A stretch of 64,000 bases of DNA, taken from the NCBI GenBank assembly GCA_963663895.2, contig CAXXRD010000002.1, positions 224,001 through 288,000 on the forward strand. The letters are read 5' to 3'. The notes beneath the pieces were generated by a model. That model worked only from the letters and a program-made list of their open reading frames with translations. It ran no database searches and was not told the origin of the DNA. Positions 4,513 to 55,102 of this stretch are shown piece by piece. The stretch is from Dehalococcoidia bacterium. GTDB taxonomy: Bacteria; Chloroflexota; Dehalococcoidia; Bin125. Position 1 is the stretch's first letter, and each line of letters begins with the position of its first letter. The position numbers and the translations under genes are program-made.

Positions 4513-4587
4513 GCGGGAGTAGCTCAGCGGTAGAGCATCTGCTTCCCAAGCAGAGGGTCGCGGGTTCGACCCCCGTCTCCCGCTCCA
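4513..4587 (+). tRNA. tRNA-Gly (CCC)
   Basis: Full cloverleaf: acceptor GCGGGAG/CTCCCGC, anticodon arm TCTGC-TTCCCAA-GCAGA, GGTTCGA T-loop, encoded CCA. Confidence 0.97.
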
Positions 4588-4736
4588 ATGCCTCCTATGG
4601 ATATAGAGAGAGCGGACGGCCGTCGGGGCCGCCCGGGCATCGGGATCGGTGACCCTCTGCTTTCCCAGCACGCCGATGAAGCCCATACCACGCGACCCGA
4701 TCCACGCCCCGTCTGCCTCGTGCCCAGGCTTACCAT

Positions 4737-4791
4737 CCTTAGCAACGGCGCGATCGCTAGCAAAGGTAGCGTTTGCTAAGGGTTGCTAGCG
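4737..4791. repeat. Two interleaved 9-bp inverted repeats with TAGCAA core (possible integrase arm or regulator binding sites)
   Basis: CCTTAGCAA(4737-4745)/TTGCTAAGG(4773-4781) and CGCTAGCAA(4755-4763)/TTGCTAGCG(4783-4791). Confidence 0.55.
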
Positions 4792-4812
4792 GATCGGAGC
4801 CGCGCGGCGCCC

Positions 4813-5223
4813 TTACCAGGTAAGACTGTCCTCTGCCTCCTCCGGACGGCAGCGCGCGGCGATCGCGGCTACGTATTCCTCCGACGGCTCGGCCAGGGTA
4901 ACCGGCGGGTCGAGGGCGATCTCGGCAACGAACGCCGTGAAGGCCGCGCGCTGGGCGGCCGCCAGGGCGTGGAGGGCGGGCGTGAGCGGGTCGGCGCCGA
5001 ACACCGTCGCGACGACTTCCCCCTCGATCGCCAGCGCCCGGAGCAGGTGATGGGCGGCGCGGATGCCGTCGCGCAGGAGATCCTCCAGGGGTGGCAGCTG
5101 GGGCTCGCCCGTGTCGCCTGTGTCCCCGGGGACCGCCATGCCCCGCAGCTCCTCCGCGACCACGCGTACCTCCCGGTCGAGATACGGGTCGAGGGGCTCG
5201 TCCGGACCACTAAGATCGCGCAT
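4813..5223 (-). CDS. Hypothetical protein
   Basis: ORF with protein-like helical composition; no family recognised. Confidence 0.5.
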   Translation of the reverse strand: MRDLSGPDEPLDPYLDREVRVVAEELRGMAVPGDTGDTGEPQLPPLEDLLRDGIRAAHHLLRALAIEGEVVATVFGADPLTPALHALAAAQRAAFTAFVAEIALDPPVTLAEPSEEYVAAIAARCRPEEAEDSLTW

Positions 5224-5564
5224 TGCAGCGGATCGCACCGGACAGCGCCAGCTGGATCATCACCGACGCCGACGGGACCGAGATCACACCGGACGTATCG
5301 GGATGCGTCCCCGGCAGCCCCCGATCGCGCATCGCACCCTGATGCAGGACGACGACACGGCAGATGATGAGGAAGCGTGCGACGAGGAGTGACAGACGCT
5401 CCGCGCAACCGACAGCGAGGCCGCTGCGCTTGGTTGACAGACGGAGCACGGCCCCAGCCGTACCCAACCGGGAAGTGTCAGTTTCTCGACGATCCGAGAA
5501 GCCGCCTCGTCACTGCGGGCGATACTCTTCTGTAAGATGGTCGCGCGGCGGCGTGGAGCGCGGG

Positions 5565-5807
5565 ATGAGCGGGGACGACGGTCTGCGAAGGAAGATCCTC
5601 AGTGGGCAATCGGATGCCAACGTCCGCTTTGAAGAGCTCCGTTCGTACCTGTTGCAGTTAGACTTCACCGAGCGCGTCCGCGGAAGCCACCATATCTTCC
5701 GGAGAGAGGACGTCCGCGAGCTGATCAACCTGCAGCGCGACGGGAGCCAGGCGAAGCCCTACCAGGTACGGCAGGTCCGCCAGGCAATCCTGAGAAACCA
5801 CCTGTGA
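5565..5807 (+). CDS. hicA: HicA family toxin
   Basis: RGSHHIF motif, KPYQVRQV; directly upstream of HicB. Confidence 0.85.
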   Translation: MSGDDGLRRKILSGQSDANVRFEELRSYLLQLDFTERVRGSHHIFRREDVRELINLQRDGSQAKPYQVRQVRQAILRNHL

Positions 5808-5817
5808 GGACAGCCGG

Positions 5818-6030
5818 ATGCACAAGTACGAGATCATCATCTACTGGAGCAACGAGGACGACACGTTCGTCGCGGAGGTGCCCGAGCTTCCCGGTTGCAG
5901 CGCCCACGGCGATACCAAGGCGGCCGCCCTGCAAAGCGTCGAGCAGGCGATCGGCCTCTGGATCGATACGGCACGGGAGTTCGGCGACCCTGTTCCGGAC
6001 CCTAGGGGTGAACGCCTGATGCTGGCGTAG
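5818..6030 (+). CDS. hicB: HicB family antitoxin (short form)
   Basis: FVAEVPELPGCSAHGDT...AL...A...G.PVP.P typical HicB. Confidence 0.9.
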   Translation: MHKYEIIIYWSNEDDTFVAEVPELPGCSAHGDTKAAALQSVEQAIGLWIDTAREFGDPVPDPRGERLMLA

Positions 6031-6039
6031 AGGCACAGG

Positions 6040-6300
6040 ATCGGTGTCACCCCAGCCGACATCGAAGATGTCGCGCTGGGGTGGCTCGCGGCCCTCGGCT
6101 GGCCGATCGACGCACGGCTCGCGACGCTCACGCTCCGCGGCGTCGACATCGGCGACTTCTCCAGCCGTCAGACCAACTACACGGGCGTCCCCGAAGACGG
6201 CTTGCCGGTCACGACGGTCGTTGCGGAAGCGGTGCAGAACGGCGCGACGGTTGCGATCGATCCGCACGACACCGATGAGGAGACGGCGCGGCGTCCAACA
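6040..6300 (+). pseudogene. Chimeric remnant: type I R-M HsdR N-terminus-like fragment joined to a cadherin-like beta-sandwich fragment
   Basis: Start-less frame IGVTPADIEDVALGWLAALGWPI then DARLATLTLRGVDIGDFSSRQTNYTG...TTVVAEAVQNGATVAIDP. Confidence 0.4.
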
Positions 6301-6336
6301 CGAACACAGCGACATCCCGGTGTCCCCGCCCGGCCG

Positions 6337-7900
6337 TCACTCCCCCGGCGGCTTGGGCATGCTGTAGCCGACACGCAGATGATTGACGATGTACACGGGG
6401 TTCTTGGCATCGTCGCCCAGCTTCCGCCGGAGCTGCTTGACGACCGTGCGCACCAGGCCGTTCCTGCCGGGGTGGCCGGGGCCCCAGACGCGGCCCAGAA
6501 GTTCGGCGTGCGTCAGCACCGCGCCGGGGTTGCTGGCGAGCTCATAGAGCACGCGGTACTCGAGGTCGGTCAGCTCCAGCGGGCGGCCCGCCAGCGTCGC
6601 TCGCCGTTCGTGGAAGTTGATCGTCAGGTCGTGCAACGCGTACGGGCCGGCCGGCTGAGGGGAGTTGCCGCCCGCCCAGCGGCGCAGGACCGTGCGAATC
6701 CTCGCGACCAGCTCCGTGGGGGGAAAACGGCTTCACGATGTAGTCTTCCGCCCCCATCTCCAGGGCCCGCGCCACGCGCCGGTCGCCTCCATACGCGGAG
6801 AGGAAGATGACCGGCAGTTCCTTCAGCGCCGGGACGGCCTCCATGAGCTCGATGCCATCGGTCTCGGGCAGCATGAGGTCGAGCAGCACGAGCTGCGGAT
6901 GGTGCTCGTCGATGAGACGCTCCACGGCTTCCGGGTCGCCCGTCAGGAACGGCTCGAAGTGGGCCTGTGTCAGCGCATCGCGGACGTGGCGGAGCGTCTG
7001 CGGGTCGTCATCCACGACGAGCACACGAACCCGGCGCCTGCCCGCCTCGTCGTGTTGCGGCGCACGCTTCGGCATGACCGGCTCGCCGGGGATCGCGTTC
7101 GGTTCGGCGATCGGCAGGGTGAAACTGAAGCGGGCTCCTTTTCCTAGTCCCTCGCTCTGCGCCCAGATGCGGCCCCCGTGCGCCTCTACGATGCCCCGAG
7201 AGATGGCCAGTCCCAGTCCCGAATCACTCTGCCCCTCGGGACGCGCCAGCTCCCGCCGCGAGAACTTGCGGAACAGATGCGGCAGCTGCTCCTCCGCGAT
7301 CCCCGCCCCGGTATCGCTGACGGAGAACTCCAGCTGGACGCCCCGCAACTCGACGCGCAGGCGGATCAGCGAGCCGTCCGGGCTGGCGCGCTCGGCATTG
7401 GTCAGGAGATTGACCAGGACTTGCGCGATGCGTCGCCGGTCCGCCATCACCGGCGGCAGGTCCGGGGGCATGTCGATCTCGATGTTGTCCGTACCGCCTC
7501 CGCTGATGAACGACCCGCGGGCACGGTCGATCAGGTCGCGCACCTCGGCCGGCTCGGGCGAGACGGAGAGGGCGCCCACCTCGATCCAGGCCACGTCCAG
7601 CAGGTCCGTGATCAGCGCCTGCATGTGGTTGGCCTGTTCGTCGATGAGCCGGTGAAACTGGACCAGCTCCGCCGAGCCCAGCGCCAGATCCGAAGCGAGC
7701 AGGATCGCGGCCGAGCCCTTGATCGACGTGAGCGGCGCGCGCAGTTCGTGACTGACCATCGCCAGGAATTCCGCCCGCATCCGTTCCAGGTCCTCGAACG
7801 CGGCCACATCCTGCATGGTCACGACCACGGATTCGACCTCGCCCTCGGGGGAACGGATGGCCGTGGCGTTGACGATCACCGTCACGCTGCGCCCGTCGGG
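6337..7900 (-). pseudogene. Hybrid PAS-histidine kinase-REC-OmpR wHTH protein, 5'-truncated and frameshifted
   Basis: SHELRAPL H-box, NLLTNA, GLGLAI, VLVVDDD REC; removing one C of the C6 run at 6718-6723 restores [13 protein letters not shown] and joins the trans_reg_C ORF 6337-6636. Confidence 0.8.
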
Positions 7901-8299
7901 CGCCCTTGAGTGGACCCCGGTTGACCATGCGCCCAGGTGATGATGACACCGGGATGCGGGAGTGCTCCGGCGTCTCGTCCAGCTCCCCGGCGCTGCTGTT
8001 CGGCGGGAACCTTCTCCCGGGACGATGCGTATAGAGACTGACAGGCCCCCTGGAGTATGGAAGCGATGAGAGAGGGGGCGATGGAGATGATGGATGGATA
8101 GGAGCATGGCCTGCCTGAACAGGCGGGGTGGGCGGCGGTGATCGCCTTGGCCCTGTGCGTGACGACCGCCGCCCTGCTAGCGGCGTGCGGCAACGAGCGG
8201 AAGGCTCGGACCTAGCGGACCTGAGAGGCCGGCAGACAGTACGACGTTCGAGTTGAACGTTACCCATGGGTCTGAAGTCGAGGCACCCCGGAGGTCCGC

Positions 8300-9988
8300 T
8301 CAGGACTCGATCAGCCCATCCTGGGGCTGCGTCCAGGGCAGCTGATAGAGGGGCGCGAATTGCGGGGCGCGCGGGATGGGCATGTCGCCGAACGGCACGT
8401 CGATGACCACCGGTTCGTCGTGCGCCAGCGCCGCCGGCAGAAGGGTCGCCAGCTCCATCGGATCCGCCGCCCGCATGCCGACCGCGCCGAACGACTCGGC
8501 GAACCTGACGAAGTCCGGGTTGTGCAGGTCGGTTCCGTAGGCGCCGCCGAACGCCATCTCCAGATCGCGCGCGACGTTGCCGTAGGAGTCGTTCCTGAAG
8601 ACGACGGTCGTCACGTTGATGCCGTGCTGCACGGCGGTGGAGAGTTCGGACGCATTGAACAGGAACCCCCCGTCGCCAACCATGCAGACCACGGGGCGAT
8701 CGGGCTGGGCCACCTTGACGCCCAAGGCCGTCGGGAACGCGTAGCCGACGTTGAACTGATACCCGGAGTCGATGTACGTCTTGGGATGGTTCACTTTGTA
8801 GTGCGTGCGGGCGTAATAGCCGAATTGCGTGACATCCCACACGATGAATGCGTCCTCCGGGATGTTGCCCTGGATCGCCTCCAGCACCGGGTACTGCGGC
8901 TCCTTCAGCCTGATGTCGTAGTAAGAGATCAGGTTCCGGGCCGCCTCAACGCCCTCGGCGGGCGACGGGCGATCGCCCGCTCCGGCCTCGTGGAGCCAGG
9001 GGAGCATCGCTTTGATCGTCGCTTTCGCGTCGCCATGTAAGGGGATGGTGTTGGACTGAATCCGCATCAGCTCGCTGTCGTCGACGTTGATGTTCACCAG
9101 CGTGGCGGCGTTGCCCGCCGGGTTGCCGAGCGAGAAGCGCGCGCCGATCCCGATCACGACGTCGGCCGCCTGCATCACCTCGAACAGCTGGTTCATCTCC
9201 TGCCGCTCGCCCCGCGGGCTGAAGCAGGAGCCGTAGGAGAGCGGATGGCTGTCCGGGATCGTCCCCTTGCCGCCGCTGGACGTGACCACCGGGATGTTCG
9301 TCGCCTCGGCCAGCTTGACGAGGGCGTCCTCCGCATCTGATCGCGCCACCCCGCCGCCAGCGTAGATCAAAGGCAAGCGCGCCGCGGCGATCACACGGGC
9401 CGCCTCCCGCAGCTGGTCCGGGCTCGGCACAATCGGCGCGACGGGCGCCGGATCCCACAGCTCGACCTCTTCCCGCTCGACGCCCACCTCTGGCGGCACC
9501 TCGATCAACACCGGGCGCGGACGCCCACTGCGCATCTGTCTGAAGGCTTCGGTCACGGCCGCGGGAATCTCCCGTGGCCGCATCGCCGCGCGCCGCCACT
9601 TGGTCACCGCGCGCACCGTGTCGGCCTGATCCAGCACCTCGTGCACCGCCCCGGCGTTCTTCCCGATGGCGGCGCGAGGGATCTGGCCGGCGATGACGAG
9701 TACGGGTGAAGAGCGGGCGTATGCCGTGGCCAGGCCGGAGGCGGCGTTGTACAGGCCCACGCCGGGCACCACCAGCGCGACGCCCGGCTTCCCGGAGGCG
9801 CGGGCATAGCCATCGGCCATGTAGGTCGCGGCCTGCTCGTGGCGGGTTGCGATCAGGCGAATCCCCGGCTCGTCGCGCAGCCCCGCGACGAGCCCGTATA
9901 TCTGAATGCCCGGGATCCCGAAGACGACCTCGACGCCCTCCTTGACGAGGGATCGGGCCAGGGCTTCGCCGCCGCTGCACTTGGCCAC
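8300..9988 (-). CDS. Thiamine pyrophosphate-binding protein (acetolactate synthase-like family)
   Basis: VFGIPG, RHEQ.A..MADGYAR, GDGGF...N TPP-binding motif. Confidence 0.9.
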   Translation of the reverse strand: MAKCSGGEALARSLVKEGVEVVFGIPGIQIYGLVAGLRDEPGIRLIATRHEQAATYMADGYARASGKPGVALVVPGVGLYNAASGLATAYARSSPVLVIAGQIPRAAIGKNAGAVHEVLDQADTVRAVTKWRRAAMRPREIPAAVTEAFRQMRSGRPRPVLIEVPPEVGVEREEVELWDPAPVAPIVPSPDQLREAARVIAAARLPLIYAGGGVARSDAEDALVKLAEATNIPVVTSSGGKGTIPDSHPLSYGSCFSPRGERQEMNQLFEVMQAADVVIGIGARFSLGNPAGNAATLVNINVDDSELMRIQSNTIPLHGDAKATIKAMLPWLHEAGAGDRPSPAEGVEAARNLISYYDIRLKEPQYPVLEAIQGNIPEDAFIVWDVTQFGYYARTHYKVNHPKTYIDSGYQFNVGYAFPTALGVKVAQPDRPVVCMVGDGGFLFNASELSTAVQHGINVTTVVFRNDSYGNVARDLEMAFGGAYGTDLHNPDFVRFAESFGAVGMRAADPMELATLLPAALAHDEPVVIDVPFGDMPIPRAPQFAPLYQLPWTQPQDGLIES

Positions 9989-10219
9989 GGATCACCTGCC
10001 TCCACCGGGATCGGGCTCCGCAAGGAGGAACCACCGCCTGCGAAAGTCAGACGTCCTCGGCTTCTCTAGGCATTCACAATACGTGTTCTGGCGATTACTC
10101 ACCCTAGAGCCTATCTACATTCAGCACGAGAACGCTCCATGGACAGCGCCAAGTACGCAATAGCACGTTCGCTGTCATCACCTGCCTCTCTGCGTGTCAC
10201 CTACTGTAGGAGTGGCAGA

Positions 10220-10293
10220 AGCTCTGTGGACGAATGAAACGCCGCTTGCCTGGCAGGCGTGAGATCCCGGTTCGAATCCTGGCAGAGCCACCG
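10220..10293 (+). pseudogene. Degenerate tRNA-like sequence (apparent GGC anticodon)
   Basis: GCTCTG/CAGAGC acceptor, CT-GGC-AG loop, GGTTCGAATCC T-arm; mismatches in D, anticodon and T stems, ends ACCG. Confidence 0.5.
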
Positions 10294-10486
10294 CGGCTGT
10301 AGTGCCTTGACGCGGGTCGCCTCGGGGCGAGCGCCTACTCGGTGGACACGCGGTGGGCCGACACGGACTGTCCTGCGCACTTTCAGGCGGCCGGTGGCTC
10401 TAGAGACGCCGAGCCGCTCGGTACCGCGAGTCGGCGAGGGTTCGGGTCCTCGTCAGGGGTGACCGGCGACCGAGCAGCCACGCGTA

Positions 10487-10707
10487 TCAGGCCGCCGGTG
10501 ATGCCGGCGCGGCATCGGAGGACTCAGGAAGGAGCGCCCTCACGGCGGGAACGCGATCGTTCGGGATCCCCATCACCGTTTGCGACTTCTGCTTGAGGGT
10601 AGCCTCGATCTCCGCCGCCAACGCGTCGTCCGACAGCCCTTCGTCGTGCGCAATGACGTGGCGCACGCGCTCTTCATCCCCGCCGGCGGGAACCTGTTTG
10701 TCGTGAG
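10487..10707 (-). pseudogene. Frameshifted small antitoxin-like hypothetical protein
   Basis: TNRFPP / DEERVRHVIAH...QTVMGIPNDRVPAVRALL resembles a small FPPGWDEERV-type family recalled from memory; no start codon. Confidence 0.4.
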
Positions 10708-10783
10708 AGGTGGCCCCGATGTCGTGAGAGCCATGACTGAGTGCTAGGGTGTGGAGAAGGAGCGTTGACGCGGAGCGAGATTG

Positions 10784-11948
10784 ATGCCAATGCCCTGGCC
10801 TACACGAAGGGCTACGAGTCGGCCCGGGCGCTCGATCCGGAGAGGGCGCGGAAATACGTCGCGCATACGGTCATCGGCGACCCCGAAGCCGACGCGTTGC
10901 TGGAGGAGCTTGCCCCTCTCGGACAGGAGGAGTTGGGCAGGCTGATCCAGATCGGGATGGACGGCGACGAGCGCGCGCTGCGGGACGTGCCGGCCGTCCT
11001 GCGAGAGTTCTTCGCGTCCTGCGCGGCTCCGCCCGACTGGCTCGACCTCCCGGGCACATGCCCGGCATCCGCATGTACCACCGCAATTCGAGGCTGGTGC
11101 TGGGGGCGATGGTGGCTGGCACCCTGGTGGAGGGATTCGCCACGAACATCGCCAAGTCGTTCTTCATCACGGGCAAGGTGCGGGATCAGGGCATTCGGCG
11201 GCTGAAACAGAACAACCGCCACATGGTGGAGATCTTCCTCCCCGGCGGCCTGGAACGAGACGGCGATGGCTGGAAGCTGTCCGTTCGCATCCGGCTGGTC
11301 CATGCAATGGTCAGGCGCCTGCTGGACACCTCAGAGGACTGGAACCACGAGGCCTGGGGCACCCCGGTCAGCGCCGCCCACACGGGCTTCGCGATCACCG
11401 CTTTCTCAGCGAGGTCCCTGAAACACCTGCAGAGCCTGGGAGCCCAGTTCACCGACGAAGAGCGCGCGAGCTTCATGCAGGTCTGGCGCTACTCCGGTCA
11501 TCTCATGGGCATCCCCGAGACGATCCTGTTCCGCGACGAAGCAGATGCCCTCGAGACATTCAAGGTTGGCCTTGCGTGCGAGCCGGAGGCCGAGCTGGAG
11601 TCGATCTCCCTTGCCAACGCGCTGGTCAACTCCTCTCCACTGATTGCGGGGGTGACCGACCCGGCCGCGCGCCGCAAGCTGGCCCACTACGTGTACCGCG
11701 TCTCGCGCGCGCTCATCGGACCCTCGATCGCCGACCAGCTCATGTTTCCTCGCTACCCGACGGCCGGGGTGCTCTGGTGGTTCCGCATGCAGAACCGGTA
11801 CGACGACTGCATGAACAGGCTCTTCAAGAGTCGCGCCCGGAAGAACAACCAGCTGAGCGCCATGCTCGATGTCGCGATGGTCGACGAAGCGGGGATCAAC
11901 TACAGGCTGCCGGACCACGTCTATGCAGAAGAGTCATCCCGGTGGTGA
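10784..11948 (+). pseudogene. MpaB/Lcp-like (DUF2236) oxygenase, frameshifted
   Basis: GDPEADAL...PPDWLD in one frame continues as RIRLVHAMVRR...WGTPVS...WRYSGHLMGIPE in another (shift ~11050); possible second shift near the start. Confidence 0.75.
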
Positions 11949-12110
11949 TCCGGCGCGGTCATCGCGTTCGGGTCGCTGCGGATGCGCCGTCCTTCGCAGG
12001 ATCCGGGAGTCATGCCTGAGTGGGCGCACTTCAACACGGATCGGCATGAGTCCAGCCTTGCCCCTCGTTTACACCACCGTAAGGAGAGCGGTCACAAGAC
12101 ACAGGAGTGC

Positions 12111-12539
12111 ACGACGACGCTGAACATCTACCTCACATTCGACGACAACTGCCGCGAGGTCTTCGCGTTCTACCGTTCCGTCTTCGGCGGGGAATTTCCA
12201 GCACTACAAACCTTCGGCGACGGTCCGCCCGACATGGGCGTCCCGGACGACGCCAAGCACCGCATCATGCACGTCTCGCTGCCGGTTGGCGACAGCGTCC
12301 TGATGGGCAGCGATGCCAACCCCGCCTTCGGTCCCGGCCCCGGCGCCGGCACCAACTTCTCCATCAGCTACACCCCCACCAGCCGTGCCGACGCCGATAT
12401 AAAGTTTGCTGCGCTCGCTGCGGGCGGCAAGGTCTCGATGCCCATGGCCGACATGTTCTGGGGCAGCTATTTCGGCTCCTGCACGGATCAGTTCGGCATC
12501 GGCTGGCAGATCAACTGGGCACTGCCGCCATCCGACTGA
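12111..12539 (+). CDS. VOC/PhnB family protein (start uncertain)
   Basis: YLTFDDNCRE...FY.SVFGG, IMHVSL, LMGSD, FWGSYFGSCTDQFGIGWQIN; AGGAG SD followed by ACG rather than ATG. Confidence 0.8.
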   Translation, partial: TTTLNIYLTFDDNCREVFAFYRSVFGGEFPALQTFGDGPPDMGVPDDAKHRIMHVSLPVGDSVLMGSDANPAFGPGPGAGTNFSISYTPTSRADADIKFAALAAGGKVSMPMADMFWGSYFGSCTDQFGIGWQINWALPPSD

Positions 12540-12608
12540 CCAGGCGTCTCACGCCGGCGCCCGATTCCCCCCTTCCCGCCAGGCGTGCGGCTCCGGTCCA
12601 TCGGGCCC

Positions 12609-12794
12609 AAGCAGTTGCTGCGGCCGTTGGGGCGGGCGGCGGGGATCTCCCGGGTCCATGCCCATCGTTTCCGGCACACCTTCGCGACCTAGGCCATCGC
12701 CCATGACGCGCGCGAACTCGATGTCCAGCACCTGCTCGGCCACAGCACCCCGGACATGGTGCGCCGCTACAGCGCCACCGACGGCAGTGTCTAG
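12609..12794 (+). pseudogene. Tyrosine recombinase/integrase C-terminal fragment
   Basis: KQLLRPLGRAAGISRVHAHRFRHTFAT*AIAHDARELDVQHLLGHSTPDMVRRYS: HxxR, LLGH and catalytic Y; internal TAG, N-terminus absent. Confidence 0.85.
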
Positions 12795-15236: not shown

Positions 15237-15247
15237 GCTAGCTAAGG

Positions 15248-16751: not shown

Positions 16752-16801
16752 GTTGCGATCCGCCGCCGCCGCGCGGTCAAACGGTCAGACCGCTACCACC
16801 T

Positions 16802-45250: not shown

Positions 45251-45362
45251 AGGCGCCTGGGCTGCCCCGAACAGCGCTCCGCGCATCGGCCGATGTCTCC
45301 CAGCACCCCCGTGCACCCGGGCCGATCGGGGCTTGGCTTGCGCTGCGGGGAAGGGCCTCAGC

Positions 45363-47379: not shown

Positions 47380-47404
47380 ACGGCCGCCGCGCGTGCGGCC
47401 TTCC

Positions 47405-49831
47405 CTAGGCGCCGGGCTGCAGGAGGCGCCAGAGCTTCTCGGAACCGAGCGTCATGTCGATGTGGCGCACGCCCAGATCGCTGAGGGCGTCGACGGCGGC
47501 GTTGACGATGCAAGGCGCCGAGCCGATCGTGCCGGCTTCGCCGATGCCCTTGGCGCCCAGCGGGTTGAGCGGCGTGGGCGTCACGGTGCTGCCCAGCTCG
47601 AAGGTCGGGAAGTCGGTCGTACGCGGCAGGGCGTAGTCCAGCAGGGAGCCGTTCAGGGGCTGGCCGTTCTCGTCGTACACCATCTCCTCGTAGAGAGCGG
47701 TGCCGATCCCCTGCGCCAGCCCTCCGTGGATCTGCCCCTCGACGATGAGCGGGTTGACCACGGTGCCGCAGTCGTCGACGCCCACGAAGCGGCGGATGAT
47801 GAGCAGGCCGGTGGCGGGGTCGACCTCGACCAGTGCGATGTAGCAGCCGAAGGGGTAGGTGGATCCGGCCGGCTCCCAGAAGGCTTCATCGCTCAGACCC
47901 GGCTCCAGGCCGGAGGGGAGCGAGGCGGGCGCGTAGGCGTAGCGCGCCACCTCGGCCAGGGACAGTCCGCTCTCGGTGGCGCCCGCCACGCTGATCGCGC
48001 CGTCCGCGAACACCAGATCGTCCGCCTTGGCCTCCAGGAGCTGGGCGGCGAAGCGCGCCATGCGCGCCTTGACCTTGCCGGCTGCCAGCAGGAGGGCGGT
48101 GCCGCCGACCGCCTGGGAGCGGCTGCCGAAGGTGCCGATGCCTTGCTTGACGATGGCCGTATCGCCGTGCTGGATCGTGATCGCTTCGAGCGGCGCGCCG
48201 AATTCGTCGGCCAGGAGCTGGGCGAAGGTGGTCTCGTGGCCCTGCCCATGGGAGGACGCCCCAGTGGTCGCCGTGATGACGCCGTCCCGCTCGACCGTGA
48301 CGCCGGCATGCTCCCAGCCACCGAACGAGACTTCCGAGGAGGGGCCGATGCCGCAGACCTCCACGTAGAAGGCCAGCCCCAGGCCGAGGCGGCGGCCCGC
48401 GGCGCGGGCCGCGTCGCGCTGGGCGCGGAGGCCGTCCCAGTCCGCCAGGTCGAGCGCGTGGTCCAGCAGGCGGCCGTACTCGCCGGAGTCGTAGGTCGCC
48501 CCCGCCTGGGTGCGAACCGGGAAACGCTCGGGCGCGATGAAGTTCCTGCGCCGCAGCTCGGCCGGGTCGATCGCGAGCTCGCGCGCCAGCATGTCCATGG
48601 CCCGCTCGACGAAGTAGATCCCCTCCGGCCGTCCGGCGCCGCGATAGGGATCGGTGGGCGTCTTGTTGGTGAAGGCCTCGTACAAGTCGGCGCGGATGGC
48701 GGGGATGTCGTAGACGCCGCTCAGCATGCCCTGGGTGAGGGTCGGCACCACGACCGTGAAGAGCCCCTGGTAGGCGCCGATGTCCGCGATCAGGCGCAGC
48801 TTGATCCCCAGCAGGGCGCCGTCGCGCTTGGCCGCGAGGTCGACGTAGCCGATCACGCCGCGGCCGTGGGCGGTCGCCAGGAAGGCCTCCGAGCGCTCCT
48901 CGATCCACTTGACGGGGCGGCCCAGCCGCTGCGCGACGGCGGCGGCGGCGTAACCCTCGGCGTAGGGGTTGGTCTTGGCGCCGAAGCCGCCCCCGACTTC
49001 GGGCGCGATCACGCGGATCTGGTTCTCGCCCAGGCCGAGCGCCTGCGCCATCAGGGTGCGCACGACGTGGGCGCTCTGGGTGGAGATCCAGAGCGTGAGG
49101 AAGTCCTTGCCCGTGTCATAGTGGGCGACGACGCCGCGCGGCTCGATCGGCGAGGGGGCGACGCGGGGGCTGACCATCCGCTGGGAGATGACGACCTCCG
49201 CCCGCGCGAAGGCGTCGTCGATGGCGCCGTTATCGACTGTCCCGGCCTCGGCGTCGACGCCGGTGCCGCTGGACACGACGGGGATGGCGAGGTTGTCGGG
49301 GTAGCCGTCGTGGATCAGCGCGGGCTGGCCCGTGAGGGCGTGCTCGGGGTCGACCACGGCCGACAGCTCTTCCACCTCGACGTCGATCGCGTCGACCGCG
49401 TCTCGGGCGATGTAGCGGTCGCGGGCGACGACGACCGCCAGCGGCTCGCCCACGTAGCGCACCTTGTCCCGCGCGAGCGGAAAGAAGTCCGGCGCGGGAT
49501 AGGGGGTGAGGACGGGCATCGACGGGAGGTCGCGGAGGTCGCCGGCGGTGAACACCGCCACCACGCCGGGCAGGGCGGCCGCCGCAGTGGCGTCGATGGC
49601 GACGATGCGGCCGTGCGCGATATCGCTGCGGCGGAAGCCGAGGTGCAGGAGACCGGGCAGCTGAACGTCGTCGACGTAGGTGCCGCCGCCTTGGATCAGC
49701 CGCTCATCTTCCTTGCGGCGGATGCTCTGCCCAACGAATTGGGGCGATCGGGGGGCTGCGGGCAAGGAGTCGCTCCCCTCGCTGGGGCGGGCTCGCGTCG
49801 CGCGGAGTCCACGGTGAGCGGAGCCCAGCAC
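47405..49831 (-). CDS. Xanthine dehydrogenase-family molybdoprotein large subunit (form II CoxL-like)
   Basis: RKEDERLI.G.GTYVDD, VGGGFGAK, PYRGAGR active-site loop, NPLGAKGIGEAG; start uncertain. Confidence 0.9.
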   Translation of the reverse strand: MLGSAHRGLRATRARPSEGSDSLPAAPRSPQFVGQSIRRKEDERLIQGGGTYVDDVQLPGLLHLGFRRSDIAHGRIVAIDATAAAALPGVVAVFTAGDLRDLPSMPVLTPYPAPDFFPLARDKVRYVGEPLAVVVARDRYIARDAVDAIDVEVEELSAVVDPEHALTGQPALIHDGYPDNLAIPVVSSGTGVDAEAGTVDNGAIDDAFARAEVVISQRMVSPRVAPSPIEPRGVVAHYDTGKDFLTLWISTQSAHVVRTLMAQALGLGENQIRVIAPEVGGGFGAKTNPYAEGYAAAAVAQRLGRPVKWIEERSEAFLATAHGRGVIGYVDLAAKRDGALLGIKLRLIADIGAYQGLFTVVVPTLTQGMLSGVYDIPAIRADLYEAFTNKTPTDPYRGAGRPEGIYFVERAMDMLARELAIDPAELRRRNFIAPERFPVRTQAGATYDSGEYGRLLDHALDLADWDGLRAQRDAARAAGRRLGLGLAFYVEVCGIGPSSEVSFGGWEHAGVTVERDGVITATTGASSHGQGHETTFAQLLADEFGAPLEAITIQHGDTAIVKQGIGTFGSRSQAVGGTALLLAAGKVKARMARFAAQLLEAKADDLVFADGAISVAGATESGLSLAEVARYAYAPASLPSGLEPGLSDEAFWEPAGSTYPFGCYIALVEVDPATGLLIIRRFVGVDDCGTVVNPLIVEGQIHGGLAQGIGTALYEEMVYDENGQPLNGSLLDYALPRTTDFPTFELGSTVTPTPLNPLGAKGIGEAGTIGSAPCIVNAAVDALSDLGVRHIDMTLGSEKLWRLLQPGA

Positions 49832-49855
49832 GGCCCCGGGAGGGGACCGTGCGCC

Positions 49856-50824
49856 CTAGGCCAGGGCCATGATAGCGATGCCGCCGATGACGATCAGCGC
49901 GCCCAGCCACAGCCAGCGCGTGACGCGCTCTCCCAGGAAGAGGGCGCCGAAGGCCATGCCGATCAACGGGGAGACGGAGAAGAAGACCGTGAACTCGCCG
50001 GCGCTAATGTGCTGGAGGGACAGCGTGACGAGCACCGCCAGCAGCCCGGTCCCAACGGCGCCGGAGAGCAGGATCCAGGGCAGGCTGCGACGCGGGATCG
50101 ACCAGCGCCGCAGGCTGGATCGGGGTTGGACGAGGGCCACAGTGAAGACGAAGGGCAGCACGACGGGAATGCGCACGCTGGCGGCCGCGGCGGCGTCGAA
50201 CCCTTCCGCCGCGTACCGCAGCAGGACGGAGGCCGCGCCGAAGAGGACGCCCAGGAAGATCGCCAGGCTCAACCCGATGGCGAAGCGGTGCTGGTCGCAG
50301 AAATGGCGCCAGGCGCGGCGCGGCGGGTCGGCAGCGATCGCATCCCGCCGGAGGATGGCCGCCGCGTCGTCCACAGAGATCGCCTCGCTGGGCCGGCCGT
50401 AGTTGGCGACCAGGTACACGCCGGCGAGCACGATGACGGAGCCGATCCCGATGGCGATCGTGACGGCGTCGCCCAGGAAGGTGGCGCCGAAGGCGAACGC
50501 GGCCACGACGGAGACCCCCGTGGTGATCGTGAAGGTGCGACTCAACCCGAAGAGAGGGATCGCGACGGCGTAGAGCGTTTCGCCGATGCCGCTGGCCAGC
50601 AGCCCCTGCGCCAAGAGCAGCCCGACATCCTCGGCGCTCATGCGACCGAACTCGCCGGTCGCGCCGAGCGCCGGGACGGCGATCACGAAGAAGATCGCGG
50701 CCGCCAGCATGCGCAAGGCGCTGAGGGAGTAGGGGTCGACGTGGCGCGCCTGCGCCGACATGACGAGGCTGGCCAGGGCCCAGGCGGCGGCCGTGCCGAG
50801 CGCGGCGGCGATTCCTAGCGCCAT
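49856..50824 (-). CDS. DMT/EamA family transporter
   Basis: About 10 TM in two repeats, FLGE/FLGD motifs. Confidence 0.85.
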   Translation of the reverse strand: MALGIAAALGTAAAWALASLVMSAQARHVDPYSLSALRMLAAAIFFVIAVPALGATGEFGRMSAEDVGLLLAQGLLASGIGETLYAVAIPLFGLSRTFTITTGVSVVAAFAFGATFLGDAVTIAIGIGSVIVLAGVYLVANYGRPSEAISVDDAAAILRRDAIAADPPRRAWRHFCDQHRFAIGLSLAIFLGVLFGAASVLLRYAAEGFDAAAAASVRIPVVLPFVFTVALVQPRSSLRRWSIPRRSLPWILLSGAVGTGLLAVLVTLSLQHISAGEFTVFFSVSPLIGMAFGALFLGERVTRWLWLGALIVIGGIAIMALA

Positions 50825-51008
50825 GGCCTCGGCGTCACCGCGGGATCAGGCGCCCGCCCGGCCCGCGATGGGGAAGCTCTCCATGCGCGCCCTGCCGCCG
50901 CCCGGCATGGACGCCCGCGTGCACCTTCCTCCGCGCTTTCCTTCACGTCTTCCTCAATGACCGCAGCGAAGGAGACCACCCCGCAAGGGGGCGCGACCGG
51001 GGGCGGCT

Positions 51009-51899
51009 TCACCGGATGCGATTCGCGGCCTTGTCCTCGGCGCGCTGCCGTCGCCGGGCTTCCCCGGCGCGGCGGAGCGTCTCGCGGTTCTCCTCGGTGA
51101 CCGCCAGGAAGCGGTCCCGCCAGCCCTGGTCCTCACTCCAGACGGCGGGCGATTGCACCGTCGTGCGGGGCAGCGTCGCGTGCTCCAGCAGGTCCAAGGC
51201 TTGGCCGACGATGGCGTGCTGCATGGCGGCGTCGTAGGGCCGCCCGCAGGAGTTGCCCAGGGGGAAGTCGGTGAAGAGGAAACGGGGCACGCCGCAGTGC
51301 TCGATCACGTCGCGGGCGCTGCCGACGATCACGGTGGGAATCCCGTTCGCCTCGAGGTGGCGCGCCGCCAGTCCAACGGACTGATGACAGACCGGTCAGA
51401 TCGGCACCAGCAGCGCCACGTCCACGCCGTCCTCCCGGCAGCGACGCAGCAAGGCGGGCGCGTCCGTTTCCCGCGTATGGCGCTGCGCGTACTCCGTGGG
51501 GAGCCCGTAGAAGCGGGGCGAGAGCTCGCCGAACCGCCCCAGCGCGCGCCAATCCTGCAGTTGGCGGATCGGGAGGTACGACTCCCGATCGTCCATGTGG
51601 GTCGCCTCGCGGTCCCAGCTCAGATCGTCCGTATAGAGCCGCTCCGGCAGGGCGTCGACCGGCGCGGCATAGACGCGCTTGGGACGCGGCGTATCGCCGC
51701 TGCCGGGATCGAGCGGCATCGCGGTGGTCACCAGCCCCAGCCGGCACTGCGCCAAGGGCTTGCCCAGGGGCGCGAACGGGACGTCGGCGTGGAAGGCGTA
51801 GCGGTAGGGACGCTCGTAGCCGTGCGCCCGGTAGTACTCGCGCGTCCGATCGATGTAGCCGACGAAGGTCGGGTAGGCCGGATCGATCTCCTGCGGCAC
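51009..51899 (-). CDS. GrdB/PrdB-like selenoprotein (Sec at TGA 51396-51398)
   Basis: ORFs 51396-51929 and 51009-51332 are in the same frame; read-through gives VDVALLVPI-U-PVCHQSVGLAARHLEANGIPTV (UxxC); AGGAGG before GTG 51899. Confidence 0.85.
51363..51389 (-). promoter_or_regulatory. Bacterial SECIS-like hairpin
   Basis: TGTCATCAGTCC-GTT-GGACTGGCGGCG; G-first apical loop 18 nt after the UGA. Confidence 0.7.
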
Positions 51900-52088
51900 G
51901 GTCGTCCTCCTGCGGCTCCGCCGGTCCACTCCGCTCAGGGTACGTCACCGCGGCGGCCGGGCGCACGACCCCCACGGCGGCGCTAGGGTGATCGCCATCA
52001 GCGCACGCGCCGACGACGCCCCCGCCGGCAAGCGGAGGGAGGCGATCGCCGAGAATGCCCACGTCATCCGAGGAAGAGGTATGCGGTC

Positions 52089-53255
52089 ATGATCGACTGG
52101 CTTGGGATCGAGCACCTGTTCGAGCTTTCCGGGACGGAAGCGATCGCGGGGTTTTTCACCCCGCTGGCGATCTTCGCCGTGTTTTTCCTGGCGCAGCTCA
52201 TCCTGCCGGCAAGACGGGTGCCTGGCTACGTCGTCGATCCGGCCACCGGTGAACCCCGCCGCTACCGGCTCAACGGCCTGCTGGTGTTCGCCATCGCGCT
52301 GATCGTGTGGGCGACCGAGATCACGGGGATGCCGCGCGACTGGTTCTACCGCTCCTCGATCTACGCGGTGGCCGGCGGCACGCTCTTCACCGCCATCTTC
52401 ACCATCGCAGCGGTGTTCAGTCAGCCACACGCCGGCCGAGCCGGACGGCAGCGGCACGCTGAGATTGGAAATCCGATCCTGGCGCTGTGGGTGGGGCGGG
52501 TCCAGGAGCTGTCGCTCTTCAACAACCGCGTCGACATCAAGATGTATTTCTACGTCGTCGGCGGGACGATGCTGGCGCTCAACGCCCTCTCCGGGGCCGT
52601 GTACCATCACGAGCGCTTCGGCGACGATGCCAATCTCGGCGTGTACCTGTACGCGGCCTTCTTCACCTTCTACGTCCTGGACTACTTCATCTTCGAGCGC
52701 GTCCAGCTCTATACCTACGACCTGATCCACGAGAACCTCGGCTTCAAGCTGTTCTGGGGCGGCCTCGTGGTCTACGGGTGGCTGTTCATCCTCCCGCTGT
52801 GGGGCATGGCCGCCTACCCGGACCCCGGATTCTCGCCGGCCTGGACCTCCGTGTGGCTGATCGGCACGGCGGCGCTGTTCCTGTTCGGCTGGGGCATCTC
52901 GCGCGGCGCCAACCTGCAGAAATACACCTTCAAGCGCTGGCCCGAACGCAAGTTCCTGGGGCTGATCGAGCCCCAGTACATCGAGGCCGGCGACCGCAAG
53001 ATCCTGTGCAGCGGTCTCTGGGGGGTCGCCCGCCACTTCAACTACCTGGGCGAGGGGTTCCTGGCCCTGGCGATCGCTCTGGCCTTCGGCTACTTCGCGA
53101 ATCCCTGGGCCTGGACCTACTTCGCCTTCATCGTCTCGCTGTTCCTTTGGCGGCAACGGGATGACGACAAGCTCTGCGCCGAGAAATACGGCGCCGAGAA
53201 ATGGGCGGAGTACCGGGCGCGGGTGAAGTACCGGATCTTTCCCGGCGTCTATTGA
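52089..53255 (+). CDS. ERG4/ERG24 family sterol reductase
   Basis: LCSGLWGVARHFNYLGE and RDD..CAEKYG..WAEY..RVKYRIFPGVY signatures; multi-TM. Confidence 0.88.
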   Translation: MIDWLGIEHLFELSGTEAIAGFFTPLAIFAVFFLAQLILPARRVPGYVVDPATGEPRRYRLNGLLVFAIALIVWATEITGMPRDWFYRSSIYAVAGGTLFTAIFTIAAVFSQPHAGRAGRQRHAEIGNPILALWVGRVQELSLFNNRVDIKMYFYVVGGTMLALNALSGAVYHHERFGDDANLGVYLYAAFFTFYVLDYFIFERVQLYTYDLIHENLGFKLFWGGLVVYGWLFILPLWGMAAYPDPGFSPAWTSVWLIGTAALFLFGWGISRGANLQKYTFKRWPERKFLGLIEPQYIEAGDRKILCSGLWGVARHFNYLGEGFLALAIALAFGYFANPWAWTYFAFIVSLFLWRQRDDDKLCAEKYGAEKWAEYRARVKYRIFPGVY

Positions 53256-53430
53256 GGGGGCTCCCCGCAGCGCTCACAACGCTCCCGCCCTGCCCGCCGG
53301 GCCGTCTCTTCAAGAGACGTAACCGGCTTGCCGCCGTACGTCTCTCTATGCCAGCGTTTTCTATGCCAGTGTTCTACGCCAACGCCCCCGAACCGGCCGC
53401 CGCCGGATTCGCCAACGACGGGAGAGCCCG

Positions 53431-53808
53431 ATGAGCCAGACGGCAGGGAACCAGCCCTTGGGAAATCAACGCTCCGTTTGGAAGTGGATCCTCCTCGCGA
53501 TCGTGACCTTCAGCTTCGCCACCTACTTCTGGACCTTCGTGACCCACGACGAGCTGCAGCAGTACCGGCGGCAGGGCGTGGGCGCCGGACTCGGATTCAT
53601 CATCTACTTCCTCTTCAGCCCCGCCACGTTCTTCATCCTCCCCATGGAGATCGCCGCCCTCTACACCGAGGATGGCCGGCCCGCTCCCTTCTCTTGGAAG
53701 ATCGGGCTCTGGTTTCTGCTGCCTCTCGTGGGCAACATCATCTGGTTCATGAGCGTGCAGGGAGCCCTCAACGACTTCTGGGGCTCCAAAGGCGCGCCAG
53801 CGGCCTAG
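53431..53808 (+). CDS. DUF4234-like membrane protein
   Basis: RSV...ILL.IVTF..Y.FW...E..., IIW...VQ..LNDFW. Confidence 0.7.
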   Translation: MSQTAGNQPLGNQRSVWKWILLAIVTFSFATYFWTFVTHDELQQYRRQGVGAGLGFIIYFLFSPATFFILPMEIAALYTEDGRPAPFSWKIGLWFLLPLVGNIIWFMSVQGALNDFWGSKGAPAA

Positions 53809-53936
53809 GCTCCGCCGCCGCGCACGCGCCGCCGATCAGGGACCGGGCCGGTTTCGCGCGACCGGGAGAGGACTATGATCACGGCATGGACGCACAGCGG
53901 CGCATGGGGCCGGGGAACGGCCGGAGAGGCGCGCGC

Positions 53937-54944
53937 GTGACGCGATGGATCGCGGTCGCGCTGGCGGTGGCGCTGCTGGCGGGCGCCACGCTGGCGGCCT
54001 GCTCCTCCGGGAAGGACCCGATCGTGTTCAACGATCTGAACTGGGGGAGCGCGCGCTTCCAGAACCGCGTCGCCCAGTACCTCGCGGAGAAGGGCTACGG
54101 TTATCCGACGGATCTGACCTCGGGGCCCACCATTCCGCTGTTCGAGGGCCTGCGGCAGGGCGAGAGCGACGTGACGCTGGAGATCTGGCTGCCCAACCAG
54201 GACGAAGCGTGGGAGGCCGCGCTGGCGGCGGACGAGGTGGTCGAGCTGGGGGAGAGCCTGGGCCGCATCGGGCAATCGGCGTTCACGATTCCCGCCTACG
54301 TGCGGGAGGCGCACCCCGACCTGGACAGCGTGGACGATCTGCAGGAGGCGCGCTTCCGGGCGCTGTTCGCGACGGCGGAGAGCGGAGACAAGGCGCGGCT
54401 GGTCTCGTGTCCGGCGGGCTGGGGCTGCGAGGCGGCCAACGCGAAGCAGATCGAGAGCTACGGCCTCGCGGACGGCATCGAGATCGTCGTGCCCGAGTCG
54501 GAAGCGGCGCTGTTCGCAGACGTGCTCGCGGCGCACGAGCGGGGCGATCCCTGGCTGGGCTACCTCTCGAGCGAGATGCTGCCCTGGCTCAAGCTGGAGA
54601 TGGTGCGGCTGGAGGAACCGCCCTACAGCCACGCGTGCTGGGAGACGACGAAGGCCTGCGGCTACCAGGAAACGGTGATCGTGATCGCGGCCCGGCCCGC
54701 CCTGGTGGAACGCGCGCCCGAGGTGGCGGCGATGCTGCGGCAATGGGACATGAACCTCGATCGCTACCGGGAGGCGGCGATCTGGACGTTCGAGAACGGG
54801 GCGGGCGCGGGCGATGCCGCTCTCTGGTGGCTGCAGGCGAACGGGGAGGTATGGCGCGAGTGGGTGACGGCGGAGGCCGCGTCCCGCATCCAGAAGGCGC
54901 TCGATGCGGGCGAGCGTCCGCAGGGGTGGCCGGAGGAGGAGTAG
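53937..54944 (+). CDS. Glycine betaine/proline ABC substrate-binding lipoprotein (OpuAC/ProX-like)
   Basis: LAAC lipobox, DLNWGS, LEIWLPN, SCPAGWGC, W..WV. Confidence 0.85.
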   Translation: MTRWIAVALAVALLAGATLAACSSGKDPIVFNDLNWGSARFQNRVAQYLAEKGYGYPTDLTSGPTIPLFEGLRQGESDVTLEIWLPNQDEAWEAALAADEVVELGESLGRIGQSAFTIPAYVREAHPDLDSVDDLQEARFRALFATAESGDKARLVSCPAGWGCEAANAKQIESYGLADGIEIVVPESEAALFADVLAAHERGDPWLGYLSSEMLPWLKLEMVRLEEPPYSHACWETTKACGYQETVIVIAARPALVERAPEVAAMLRQWDMNLDRYREAAIWTFENGAGAGDAALWWLQANGEVWREWVTAEAASRIQKALDAGERPQGWPEEE

Positions 54945-55054
54945 AGGCGGCGGCCTTGCACCGGCACAACCTTTTGCTCCATGCGGGGCGGCGTACGGCG
55001 CGCGCGGGAGGGGGATTAGTCCTCACGCTCGGCGAACTGGCGCCACTTCCCTTG

Positions 55055-55102
55055 CTGCTTCCCAAGCAGAGGGTCGCGTGTTCGACCCCCGTCTCCCGCT
55101 CC
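55055..55102 (+). repeat. att-like copy 3 of tRNA-Gly 3' half
   Basis: 47/48 identical to 4539-4586. Confidence 0.93.

Follow-up and report, generated by a model that had tools for sequence, protein, structure and literature searches.

A probable decayed tandem array of integrative elements at a single tRNA-Gly(CCC) gene in a Dehalococcoidia genome

Introduction

What has built the variable stretch that lies behind the tRNA-Gly(CCC) gene of this Dehalococcoidia bacterium, and is it still at work? The window analysed here, meaning the whole stretch of 64,000 nt, corresponds to C2:224001–288000 of a 2.37-Mb genome (G000; five contigs, GC 0.665) of a bacterium that is likely sponge- or coral-associated. 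It carries an intact tRNA-Gly(CCC) gene and three displaced copies of the 3′ half of that gene, and a first-pass annotation had proposed that repeated capture at this one site produced a cassette-like array of cargo blocks. We find that the stretch is, in all likelihood, a tandem array of site-specific integrative elements that built up at this single tRNA gene and has since decayed. The system is dead in the window genome and the array is a fossil with no sign of present mobility.

Mobile elements of Dehalococcoidia have barely been described beyond the tmRNA islands of Dehalococcoides, and the locus provides a mechanism behind the flexible genomes of uncultured members of the class. The kind of island is itself well known; what is new is a member in a little-studied lineage. 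In a literature search that did not cover supplements, neither this integrase family nor tRNA-Gly arrays were found described for Chloroflexota.

Methods

Genes were called with a codon-usage model and Pfam on 77 open reading frames (ORFs), with extra annotation from NCBIfam, PADLOC and PHROGs. The assembly is of metagenome type and 91% complete. Two genomes of the same genus (G001 and G002) were present in the collection. Copies of the tRNA half were compared over 45 nt, from the first anticodon-loop base to the CCA end. Public reads were consulted as Logan contigs of four of the 24 listed runs (X18, X19, X20 and X1) against window positions 4000–23900; such contigs lose rare variants and are thus silent on mobility. 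Runs X20 and X1 showed little or no coverage at ~14.6–17.3 kb, and no weight was put on this gap.

The target tRNA gene and its displaced 3′ halves

4513..4587, + strand: intact tRNA-Gly(CCC), the integration target and regenerated attL side (ARAGORN; Rfam tRNA, 69.6 bits)
21740..21784, + strand: repeat 1, an attR-type scar holding the tRNA 3′ half from loop to CCA, 41/45 identical (4 differences)
42779..42823, + strand: repeat 2, 6 differences, the first 33 nt (42779–42811) identical and the rest diverged
55059..55103, + strand: repeat 3, 43/45 identical, with identity extending 4 nt upstream to 55055

The tRNA-Gly(CCC) gene occurs once in the five contigs, and its anticodon loop, TTCCCAA, occupies 4543–4549. 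When the tRNA was searched against the whole genome with BLAST, three partial matches came back, each in the + orientation on the window contig: 21740–21790 (51 nt, 5 mismatches), 42778–42815 (38 nt, 1 mismatch) and 55055–55102 (48 nt, 1 mismatch). Together with a Hamming scan, these matches bear out the coordinates and identities first proposed for the repeats (starting at 21740, 42778 and 55055), and the block sizes that follow from them, 17.2, 21.0 and 12.2 kb, stand as well. All three repeats retain the 7-nt loop TTCCCAA, and tRNA identity begins there. The stop codon of a SulP gene (42814–45072, − strand) falls within the lost 3′ third of repeat 2. No further tRNA half within 14 mismatches was found elsewhere in the window on either strand, nor in five shuffled windows, and a pattern search at ≤3 mismatches gave a chance expectation of 0.00 over 100 shuffles.

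Regeneration of the target, displacement of its 3′ fragment, an anticodon-centred class of attP and the formation of tandem arrays are set out as principles in the Islander description of tRNA islands (PMC4383910). Three of the features by which such arrays are recognized are present here: an intact target tRNA at one end (4513–4587), displaced 3′ fragments in the same orientation (21740, 42779 and 55059), and an identity block that starts at the anticodon loop, where the crossover itself would have taken place. A fourth feature, a tyrosine integrase in each tandem unit, is represented in the window by relics of 77 and 26 residues only, and is found in full in the relatives G002, G001 and G041.

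Integrase relics

12582..12812, + strand: relic 1, residues 226–302 of a 315-aa Xer-like tyrosine integrase (tblastn 83%, E 6.7e-31)
21607..21684, + strand: relic 2, the last 26 codons and native stop (tblastn residues 289–314, 73%)

Relic 1 has lost its N-terminal 225 residues and contains an in-frame TAG and a second stop; it accounts for the only PF00589 match in the window (12579–12779, with the in-frame TAG). Relic 2 belongs to the same integrase family, and 55 bp separate it from repeat 1 downstream. The segment 21606–21784, comprising relic 2 and repeat 1, aligns continuously with the 3′ end of an integrase gene, its spacer and the repeat that follows in G002. The first-pass annotation had recognized a single broken integrase fragment as the only mobility gene; the mobility function was correctly singled out, and the count rises to two with the relic beside repeat 1. 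No relic was detected by tblastn (E ≤ 10) upstream of repeats 2 and 3, and behind relic 1 no repeat turned up in a Hamming scan allowing 14 mismatches or in local alignment. The inference that no intact integrase is present also held: a tblastn search of the whole genome with an intact relative, which covers the suggested hunt for a complete homolog of the fragment at 12609–12794, returned fragments only. An intact copy could sit in the missing part of the genome, since the assembly is 91% complete.

Other PF00589 genes of the window genome lie at C3:190077–190604, beside tRNA-Lys and tRNA-Val (C3:191288–191627), and, as two further integrases, at C2:98676–101675 within the variable stretch C2:60–102 kb. 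These loci are probably further islands.

An integrase and half-tRNA module recurrent across Dehalococcoidia

The integrase combines PF00589 with an N-terminal SAM-like domain, and its best scores, all below cut-offs, fall on XerC, XerA and XerD models, as well as on PDB 4a8e and 1a0p. A scan of one genome per species yielded 80 loci with relatives. Record titles place those with at least 46% identity almost entirely in Chloroflexota, Dehalococcoidia or Chloroflexia; the few exceptions carry the names Planctomycetota, Rhodothermales or unclassified bacterium. None of these relatives is a cultured strain. Viral contigs supplied only relatives of 25–35% identity (15 loci) and no close ones.

At 19 of the 80 loci, in 11 genomes that are all Chloroflexota or Dehalococcoidia by record title, a tRNA-Gly half (≤8 mismatches of 45) follows the integrase alignment on the same strand at a distance of 64–252 bp, and ARAGORN called no full tRNA at any of these 19 adjacent halves. 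The half is found 2.8–3.6 kb downstream of the integrase at four more loci, and a full tRNA-Gly(CCC) lies nearby at three. At least 17 distant relatives (27–35% identity, many from Actinomycetota) have a full tRNA of another kind 100–300 bp upstream of the integrase, and no T-loop motif was present within 350 bp at 25 loci whose integrase lacks the Gly half. Across 25 aligned junctions, compared together with two tRNA genes, tRNA identity starts at TTCCCAA in all but one. The T-stems vary among hosts as GCGGG/CCCGT, GAGGG/CCCTT, GCCGG/CCGGT and GCGAG/CTCGT; because these changes are paired, the halves are taken to derive from working tRNA genes.

G041 carries a two-unit array. Behind its tRNA-Gly come a unit of 19.3 kb and then one of 39.5 kb, and both close with an open integrase gene followed by a repeat. 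Within the first of these units lie insertion sequences, an AbiJ-like gene and a DUF5131/TcmP-like pair. This array shows the live state of the element family. Homology among nine modules of G041 starts ~94 bp before the integrase and stops exactly where the repeat has its 3′ end; given that upstream limit, these nine modules share no conserved accessory gene, for instance for an excisionase or for replication. Just one locus has a shared first ORF behind the repeat. Repeats and integrase pieces also lie downstream of tRNA-Gly in G042 and G043.

The site is widely used. The 18-mer of the loop region occurs in 83 of 301 sampled genomes of the class, and 27 of the 301 (one of them, G262, unpublished) hold two or more copies of the half. 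All 17 sampled members of the window genome's family contain the 18-mer, and just one of them besides this genome has more than one copy.

Among other Dehalococcoidia genomes, G177 (L140, C11) and G302 (L137–L139) contain near-perfect tRNA-Gly halves only 1.2–2.7 kb apart. The G177 units encode a methyltransferase with a fragment resembling RepSA, a pSAM2-type replication initiator, and a phospholipase D (PLD)-like nuclease. No integrase of this family is present in the G177 and G302 arrays, whose units look more cassette-like than those of the window.

Proposed formation and decay of the array

4588..4886: arm downstream of the tRNA, conserved in G001 and G002 (left-flank alignments reach 4795 in G002 and 4886 in G001)
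4588..12812: unit A (8.2 kb), ending in relic 1, its own repeat lost; boundary deduced from the relic
12813..21739: unit B (8.9 kb), a deduced unit ending in relic 2, GC 0.63
21785..42778: block C (21.0 kb)
42824..55058: block D (12.2 kb)
55226..57158, + strand: DUF5131 and TcmP pair (PADLOC candidate system PDC-M30), GC 0.535 (DUF5131 9.5e-99; NCBIfam TcmP 6.6e-58)
57982..64000: conserved right flank, from CO-dehydrogenase-like FAD, 2Fe-2S and molybdopterin subunits onward (Pfam)

An incoming element would carry the gene for the 315-aa Xer-like tyrosine integrase at one end and, ~55–250 bp downstream of it, an attP holding the tRNA 3′ half from the anticodon loop. Exchange within the 7-nt loop would rebuild the tRNA from the element's copy and push the old 3′ half, with everything behind it, outward. 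As this crossover both rebuilds the tRNA and displaces the previous half, every unit would end in the order integrase, spacer and half-tRNA, followed by the next older unit, so that newer units would lie nearer the tRNA. Five units could be delimited accordingly: A (4588–12812, repeat lost), B (12813–21784), C (21785–42823), D (42824–55103) and perhaps E, the DUF5131/TcmP islet. Their cargo would presumably have arrived with the elements. Decay has since reduced both surviving integrases to stubs, removed at least one repeat and truncated another by deletion, while two low-GC defence islets landed inside and blocks were reshuffled relative to the same-genus genomes. At least three scars, and probably four or five, remain in this hotspot of flexible genome content.

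The arm at 4588–4886 may be the element-borne P′ arm of the unit nearest the tRNA. Its first ~55 bp also occur behind an internal repeat of G001 (82% identity), and a homolog (50%) of ORF 4813–5238 (− strand) sits ~300 bp behind the repeat at locus L061. The islet at 55226–57158, with repeat 3 on one side and the conserved right flank on the other, is absent from that position in G001 and G002 and is possibly the remnant of an outermost unit, its integrase and repeat gone. A DUF5131 gene and a partner ORF (whose only Pfam match is GMT-wHTH) stand immediately upstream of the integrase in the live unit of G041 (L134), and a DUF5131 homolog lies ~1.5 kb upstream of the integrase at L048; the pair looks like recurrent cargo of this element family.

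The locus in same-genus and more distant genomes

Conserved flanks enclose the array on both sides. The left one extends to 4795 relative to G002 and to 4886 relative to G001, and includes an oxidoreductase that is 94–96% identical in both and that the same query did not recover from the other 38 relatives, so that close orthologs of it were seen in these two alone of 41 genomes searched; the right one begins at 57914 and 57982, respectively, with 88–92% identity to G002 and G001. Between the flanks the three genomes differ in content and order, making the locus hypervariable, and the DNA adjoining the tRNA is wholly different among them. For the content at ~4.9–10 kb, in particular, the locus offers nothing closely similar in G001 or G002. 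Beyond the genus, from 6 kb before to 14 kb behind tRNA-Gly(CCC) in 10 genomes of other genera of the family, no homolog of any window protein, whether from the flanks or from the island, was found (≥40% identity, ≥60% coverage, E ≤ 1e-20).

In G002, the tRNA is followed by a 5.1-kb unit, a second repeat and two broken integrase copies. The unit consists of an unknown 1157-aa ORF and an uninterrupted 315-aa integrase, which aligns with PDB 4a8e across the catalytic domain and ends 54 bp before a repeat (5 mismatches). In G001, the contig with the tRNA carries a frameshifted integrase close to its end, and on a 23-kb contig (C23) an uninterrupted integrase gene (69% identical) precedes a repeat by 82 bp. 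Its 58-kb contig (C6) contains most of the blocks of the window: positions 20781–32417 are collinear with it, the part within block C being 22329–32417.

The repeats differ in how they relate to synteny. A synteny breakpoint lies 20–50 bp from repeat 2 against both G001 and G002, and repeat 3 borders DNA absent from both. Repeat 2 and the preceding 3′ end of a CotH gene are orthologous in G001 (window 42555–42815 versus C6rc 34377–34638, 91%), where the repeat is complete (2 mismatches) and is followed by an arm resembling the one behind the tRNA and by 3.8 kb missing here; because the ortholog is complete and its 3.8 kb are absent here, repeat 2 was evidently cut by a deletion in the window. 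Shared cargo is 84–95% identical among the same-genus genomes versus 86–93% for the flanks, and since it is about as diverged as they are, most of the array predates the split of these species. Behind three integrase copies, homology breaks off at a different point in each case, a pattern more like deletion than like site-specific exchange.

A 2.3-kb module of an alpha/beta-hydrolase and a luciferase-like monooxygenase (23464–25727) has a 94% identical copy at G002:C2:934655–936921, ~127 kb from the tRNA-Gly array. This copy sits in a variable stretch ~9 kb from a tRNA-Ser(GCT), between stretches syntenic to G000 C2:102–116 kb and C2:50–60 kb.

Two rearrangements were noted in passing. The CotH-like gene lies before repeat 2 here (39955–42755) and between the molybdopterin hydroxylase and EamA in G001 and G002, where it is flanked by a duplicated junction of 37 bp (G001) or ~149 bp (G002) that is uninterrupted in the window (49802–49950); G001 additionally retains a CotH 3′ relic before its own repeat. 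The order glyoxalase then integrase relic (12088–12812) reads integrase then glyoxalase on G001 contig C6, and both would fit an ancestral arrangement of integrase followed by glyoxalase and integrase, with different losses.

Alternative explanations

The array reading is carried by the repeats, the relics, the adjacency of integrase and repeat both here and in relatives, and the hypervariability between conserved flanks. Repeated integration at one tRNA by a tyrosine integrase of the anticodon-loop class, as the first-pass annotation supposed, is thereby upheld: a relic abuts repeat 1, intact integrases precede repeats in the same genus, and the adjacency recurs across Dehalococcoidia. Several findings weigh against it. 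The gap between the solute-binding protein and LysM genes is 100 bp in G001 versus 788 bp here, G001 lacking relic 2 and repeat 1, so that in this comparison the repeat 1 junction is an indel and not a block boundary. Only one of the three repeats is adjoined by a relic, and relic 1 has no repeat behind it. Most cargo shows no mark of recent foreign origin, given its flank-like divergence and host-like GC. At least eight integrase and repeat modules of G041 lie on contigs without tRNA-Gly(CCC), which the simple model does not explain; these intact modules (contigs C4, C8, C10 and C11; loci L046–L078) may reflect secondary sites, rearrangement or mixed strains. A match to the family integrase (E ≤ 1e-40) is found in just 6 of the 27 multi-copy genomes versus 11 of 274 others, seven candidates having been scored per genome and kin not being independent. 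Finally, the live-looking unit of G002 measures only 5.1 kb and holds one unknown ORF and an integrase, so that large blocks need not be single elements. This last point leads to a reading that we consider unlikely, in which the scars are real but stem from small elements made of an integrase and not much more, the 17-, 21- and 12-kb blocks were never mobile units, and most of the intervening DNA is ordinary chromosomal or island DNA brought in by homologous exchange, insertion of defence islets and rearrangement. It draws on the G002 unit that adjoins the tRNA with its one cargo ORF, on G177 units of 1.7–1.8 kb between near-perfect repeats, on the host-like GC and flank-like divergence of the blocks, on the deviation in GC of the CBASS/Mrr and PDC-M30 islets from their blocks, and on the comparable division between element genes and island genes described in the tycheposon preprint (10.1101/2020.12.28.424599). 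The live units of G041, which measure 19.3 and 39.5 kb and have their integrase at the far end, and the complete difference in tRNA-adjoining DNA among the three same-genus genomes speak against it, whereas the relic within the first block suggests composite blocks and is compatible with either reading.

That the repeats are chance matches, local duplications of tRNA segments or assembler joins is close to refuted. The assembly is of metagenome type and unitigs from the public runs stop at 4558–4560 within the tRNA, as expected at a repeat; however, shuffles yield no match, the repeats differ from each other at 2–6 positions and are each shorter than a read, and a single 3477-bp unitig (19241–22717) spans repeat 1 with no differences in runs X18 and X19, possibly from the source sample. 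The junction between CotH and repeat 2 also recurs in the independently assembled G001, and neither the relics nor the family-wide adjacency could arise in such a way. A rather improbable reading holds that the array is still a working cassette store, whose integrase-less blocks, with usable attachment sites, are excised, permuted or exported by an integrase that a sibling element supplies in trans or in cis, in the manner of cis-mobilizable elements (CIMEs); possible mobilisation in trans was a suggestion of the first-pass annotation. All three repeats do keep TTCCCAA and the bases behind it, uninterrupted family integrases exist in same-genus genomes, block order varies within the genus with repeat 2 a breakpoint in both comparisons, the same cargo module occupies different variable loci, and CIMEs and accretion are established elsewhere (PMC5704250, PMC3146451). 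Against this, the five contigs of the 91%-complete genome hold no family integrase, repeat 2 lacks its 3′ third, cargo has diverged together with the flanks, repeat 1 was lost in G001 with gene order unchanged, and the three end points of homology behind integrase copies are deletion-like. No joint between the tRNA and repeat 1 was seen at 4000–23900 in the Logan contigs of the four runs, which drop rare variants, and the joints listed from those runs have sides of 20–42 nt and the appearance of paralog noise. The cassette- or integron-like character first attributed to the locus is not sustained either, in view of multi-gene blocks on both strands, an array older than the species split and synteny of G001 across repeat 1; the accompanying expectation that breakpoints coincide with the repeats was borne out at repeats 2 and 3, the former a breakpoint against both genomes and the latter bordering presence/absence DNA, and failed at repeat 1, a mere indel among collinear genes. 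A doubtful extension, by analogy with the tycheposons of Prochlorococcus, would have a class-wide minimal shuttle, conserved only in a 1.1-kb module of Xer-like integrase and tRNA-Gly half-site, build the main flexible locus of these bacteria, with the integrase-less blocks of the window remaining substrates for integrases of incoming sibling elements; block permutations within the genus, the repeat 2 breakpoint and the recurrence of cargo modules in different islands would all follow from it.

Relation to known systems

The decayed array belongs to a known type, that of tRNA island arrays, CIMEs left by accretion and tycheposon-like islands. With the arrays described by Islander it shares the intact tRNA at one end, same-orientation 3′ fragments at unit ends, a tyrosine recombinase, an identity block from the anticodon loop and the outward displacement of older units by later arrivals (PMC4383910). 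It differs in that an integrase per unit is required there, whereas relics alone are left here. Arrays of three or more make up 4 of 3919 islands in that survey, whose search excludes Xer-like integrases (PMC4383910), and the present family scores best on Xer models, the class left out; standard island finders may for this reason skip a family to which the locus now points. CIMEs and accretion, as described for the Streptococcus ICESt1 family and others, likewise involve loss of integration genes and stacking of attachment-site repeats at one target (PMC5704250). In the window integration and transfer genes are gone, and the repeats, which may or may not still work as attachment sites, keep the loop core with 2–6 changes, one being truncated; the window differs in having no conjugation or relaxase genes, either here or in the live relatives examined, and no functional partner in the array.

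Tycheposons combine a tRNA-specific tyrosine recombinase with niche and defence cargo flanked by partial tRNAs, and are described as integrating serially and leaving fragmented integrases and stray partial tRNAs as remnants (10.1101/2020.12.28.424599). The recombinase and the partial-tRNA-flanked cargo are both seen here. The usual replication module of that description (10.1101/2020.12.28.424599) was not found in the window, the G002 unit or the 19 ORFs of the G041 live unit, the host phylum is another, and the likeness is one of layout. The ssrA islands of Dehalococcoides belong to the same class and are likewise tandem islands with direct repeats of the 3′ end, many without an integration module (PMC3146451). 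Their reported target is tmRNA (T-loop region), with a 20-bp repeat and a CcrB-like serine recombinase near the target (PMC3146451), in contrast to tRNA-Gly, the anticodon loop, a 45-nt repeat and a tyrosine recombinase at the distal edge here. An ssrA island with a DsiB serine recombinase was ruled out by the tRNA-Gly target and the PF00589 recombinase. Integron arrays share only the picture of one recombinase family and units separated by recombination sites; the repeats here are tRNA halves, with no attC-type site, and the integrase stands at the far end of each unit and not once at the head. An integron was likewise excluded (NCBIfam integron-integrase 54.7 versus a cut-off of 265; multi-gene blocks of 8–21 kb on both strands).

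The first-pass remark that phage and conjugation genes are missing proved sound when the 77 ORFs were compared with Pfam and the 27 unexplained ones with PHROGs. No relaxase, coupling protein or type IV secretion gene was found among the 77 ORFs (Pfam, E ≤ 0.001), which rules out an integrative and conjugative or mobilizable element (ICE/IME). A prophage or phage satellite is ruled out in turn, as Pfam detected no capsid, terminase, portal or other virion or packaging gene and none of the 27 unexplained ORFs matched PHROGs. Pfam also revealed no replication module (primase, helicase or polymerase) in the 77 ORFs.

Cargo of the blocks

The locus shows where defence genes (CBASS, Mrr and DUF5131/TcmP) accumulate together with transport and catabolic genes. 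As the array in the window is a fossil, its practical value is that of a hotspot marker and a lead to live elements in relatives. Most cargo has host-like GC (0.63–0.70 versus 0.665 for the genome), the exceptions being the two defence islets. Assignments below are from Pfam unless stated.

Unit A:
5553–6030: HicA/HicB
6542–8107, − strand: hybrid histidine kinase
8300–9988, − strand: thiamine pyrophosphate (TPP) enzyme
10220–10292, + strand: tRNA-like element (ARAGORN, Rfam)
11058–11948: MpaB-like protein
11982–12539: glyoxalase

Unit B:
13046–14185, − strand: acyl-CoA dehydrogenase
14721..17771: defence operon of the cyclic-oligonucleotide-based anti-phage signalling system (CBASS) type (PADLOC)
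14721–15251, − strand: CBASS 1TM effector (PADLOC 6.7e-28)
15248–15760, − strand: CBASS E2-like protein (PADLOC 1.1e-21)
15717–16751, − strand: CBASS oligonucleotide cyclase (PADLOC 1e-103)
16869–17243, + strand: CBASS CapH (PADLOC capH 5.2e-11)
17253–17771, + strand: CBASS CapP (PADLOC capP 7.6e-33)
18538..19521, + strand: Mrr-type (type IV) restriction endonuclease (Mrr_cat 2.6e-31, Mrr_N 2e-18; PADLOC mREase_IV)
20756–21505: solute-binding protein

The CapH/CapP regulators are divergent from the cyclase, E2 and effector genes, and the CBASS operon and Mrr share one low-GC islet (14.2–19.6 kb, GC 0.60). Block C encodes a LysM protein, an alpha/beta hydrolase, a luciferase-like monooxygenase, LOG, MsrA, two CoA-transferases, two solute-binding proteins, two Cache-domain proteins and a CotH kinase-like protein (39968–42736). 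Block D comprises a SulP-STAS-cNMP transporter, an amidohydrolase, a molybdopterin hydroxylase, an EamA transporter, an ERG4/ERG24-like reductase, DUF4234 and an OpuAC binding protein (53886–54944), as well as a tRNA-Ala 3′ fragment (45224–45268, − strand; Rfam, BLAST).

Two tRNA-like features occur within the cargo. The element at 10220–10292 is called tRNA-Ala(GGC) by ARAGORN and scores weakly in Rfam (34.5 bits, several non-standard pairs). It lies inside a ~330-bp repeat (10055–10377) that has a second copy at G000:C2:74997–75323 (84.5%), the two copies showing paired changes in the acceptor and T stems, and a further copy on G001 contig C5 (89%); a normal tRNA-Ala(GGC) is present elsewhere in the window genome. 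An 83-nt tRNA-Pro(CGG) call by ARAGORN at 45224–45268 (− strand) was rejected, as the sequence is really a T-arm with the 3′ part of the acceptor. The last 26 nt of this fragment are 96% identical to the tRNA-Ala(GGC) on contig C5, and Rfam scores it as a tmRNA-like minihelix at 22 bits. The fragment accompanies the SulP gene in G001 too, and could be what is left of an attachment site belonging to another element family.

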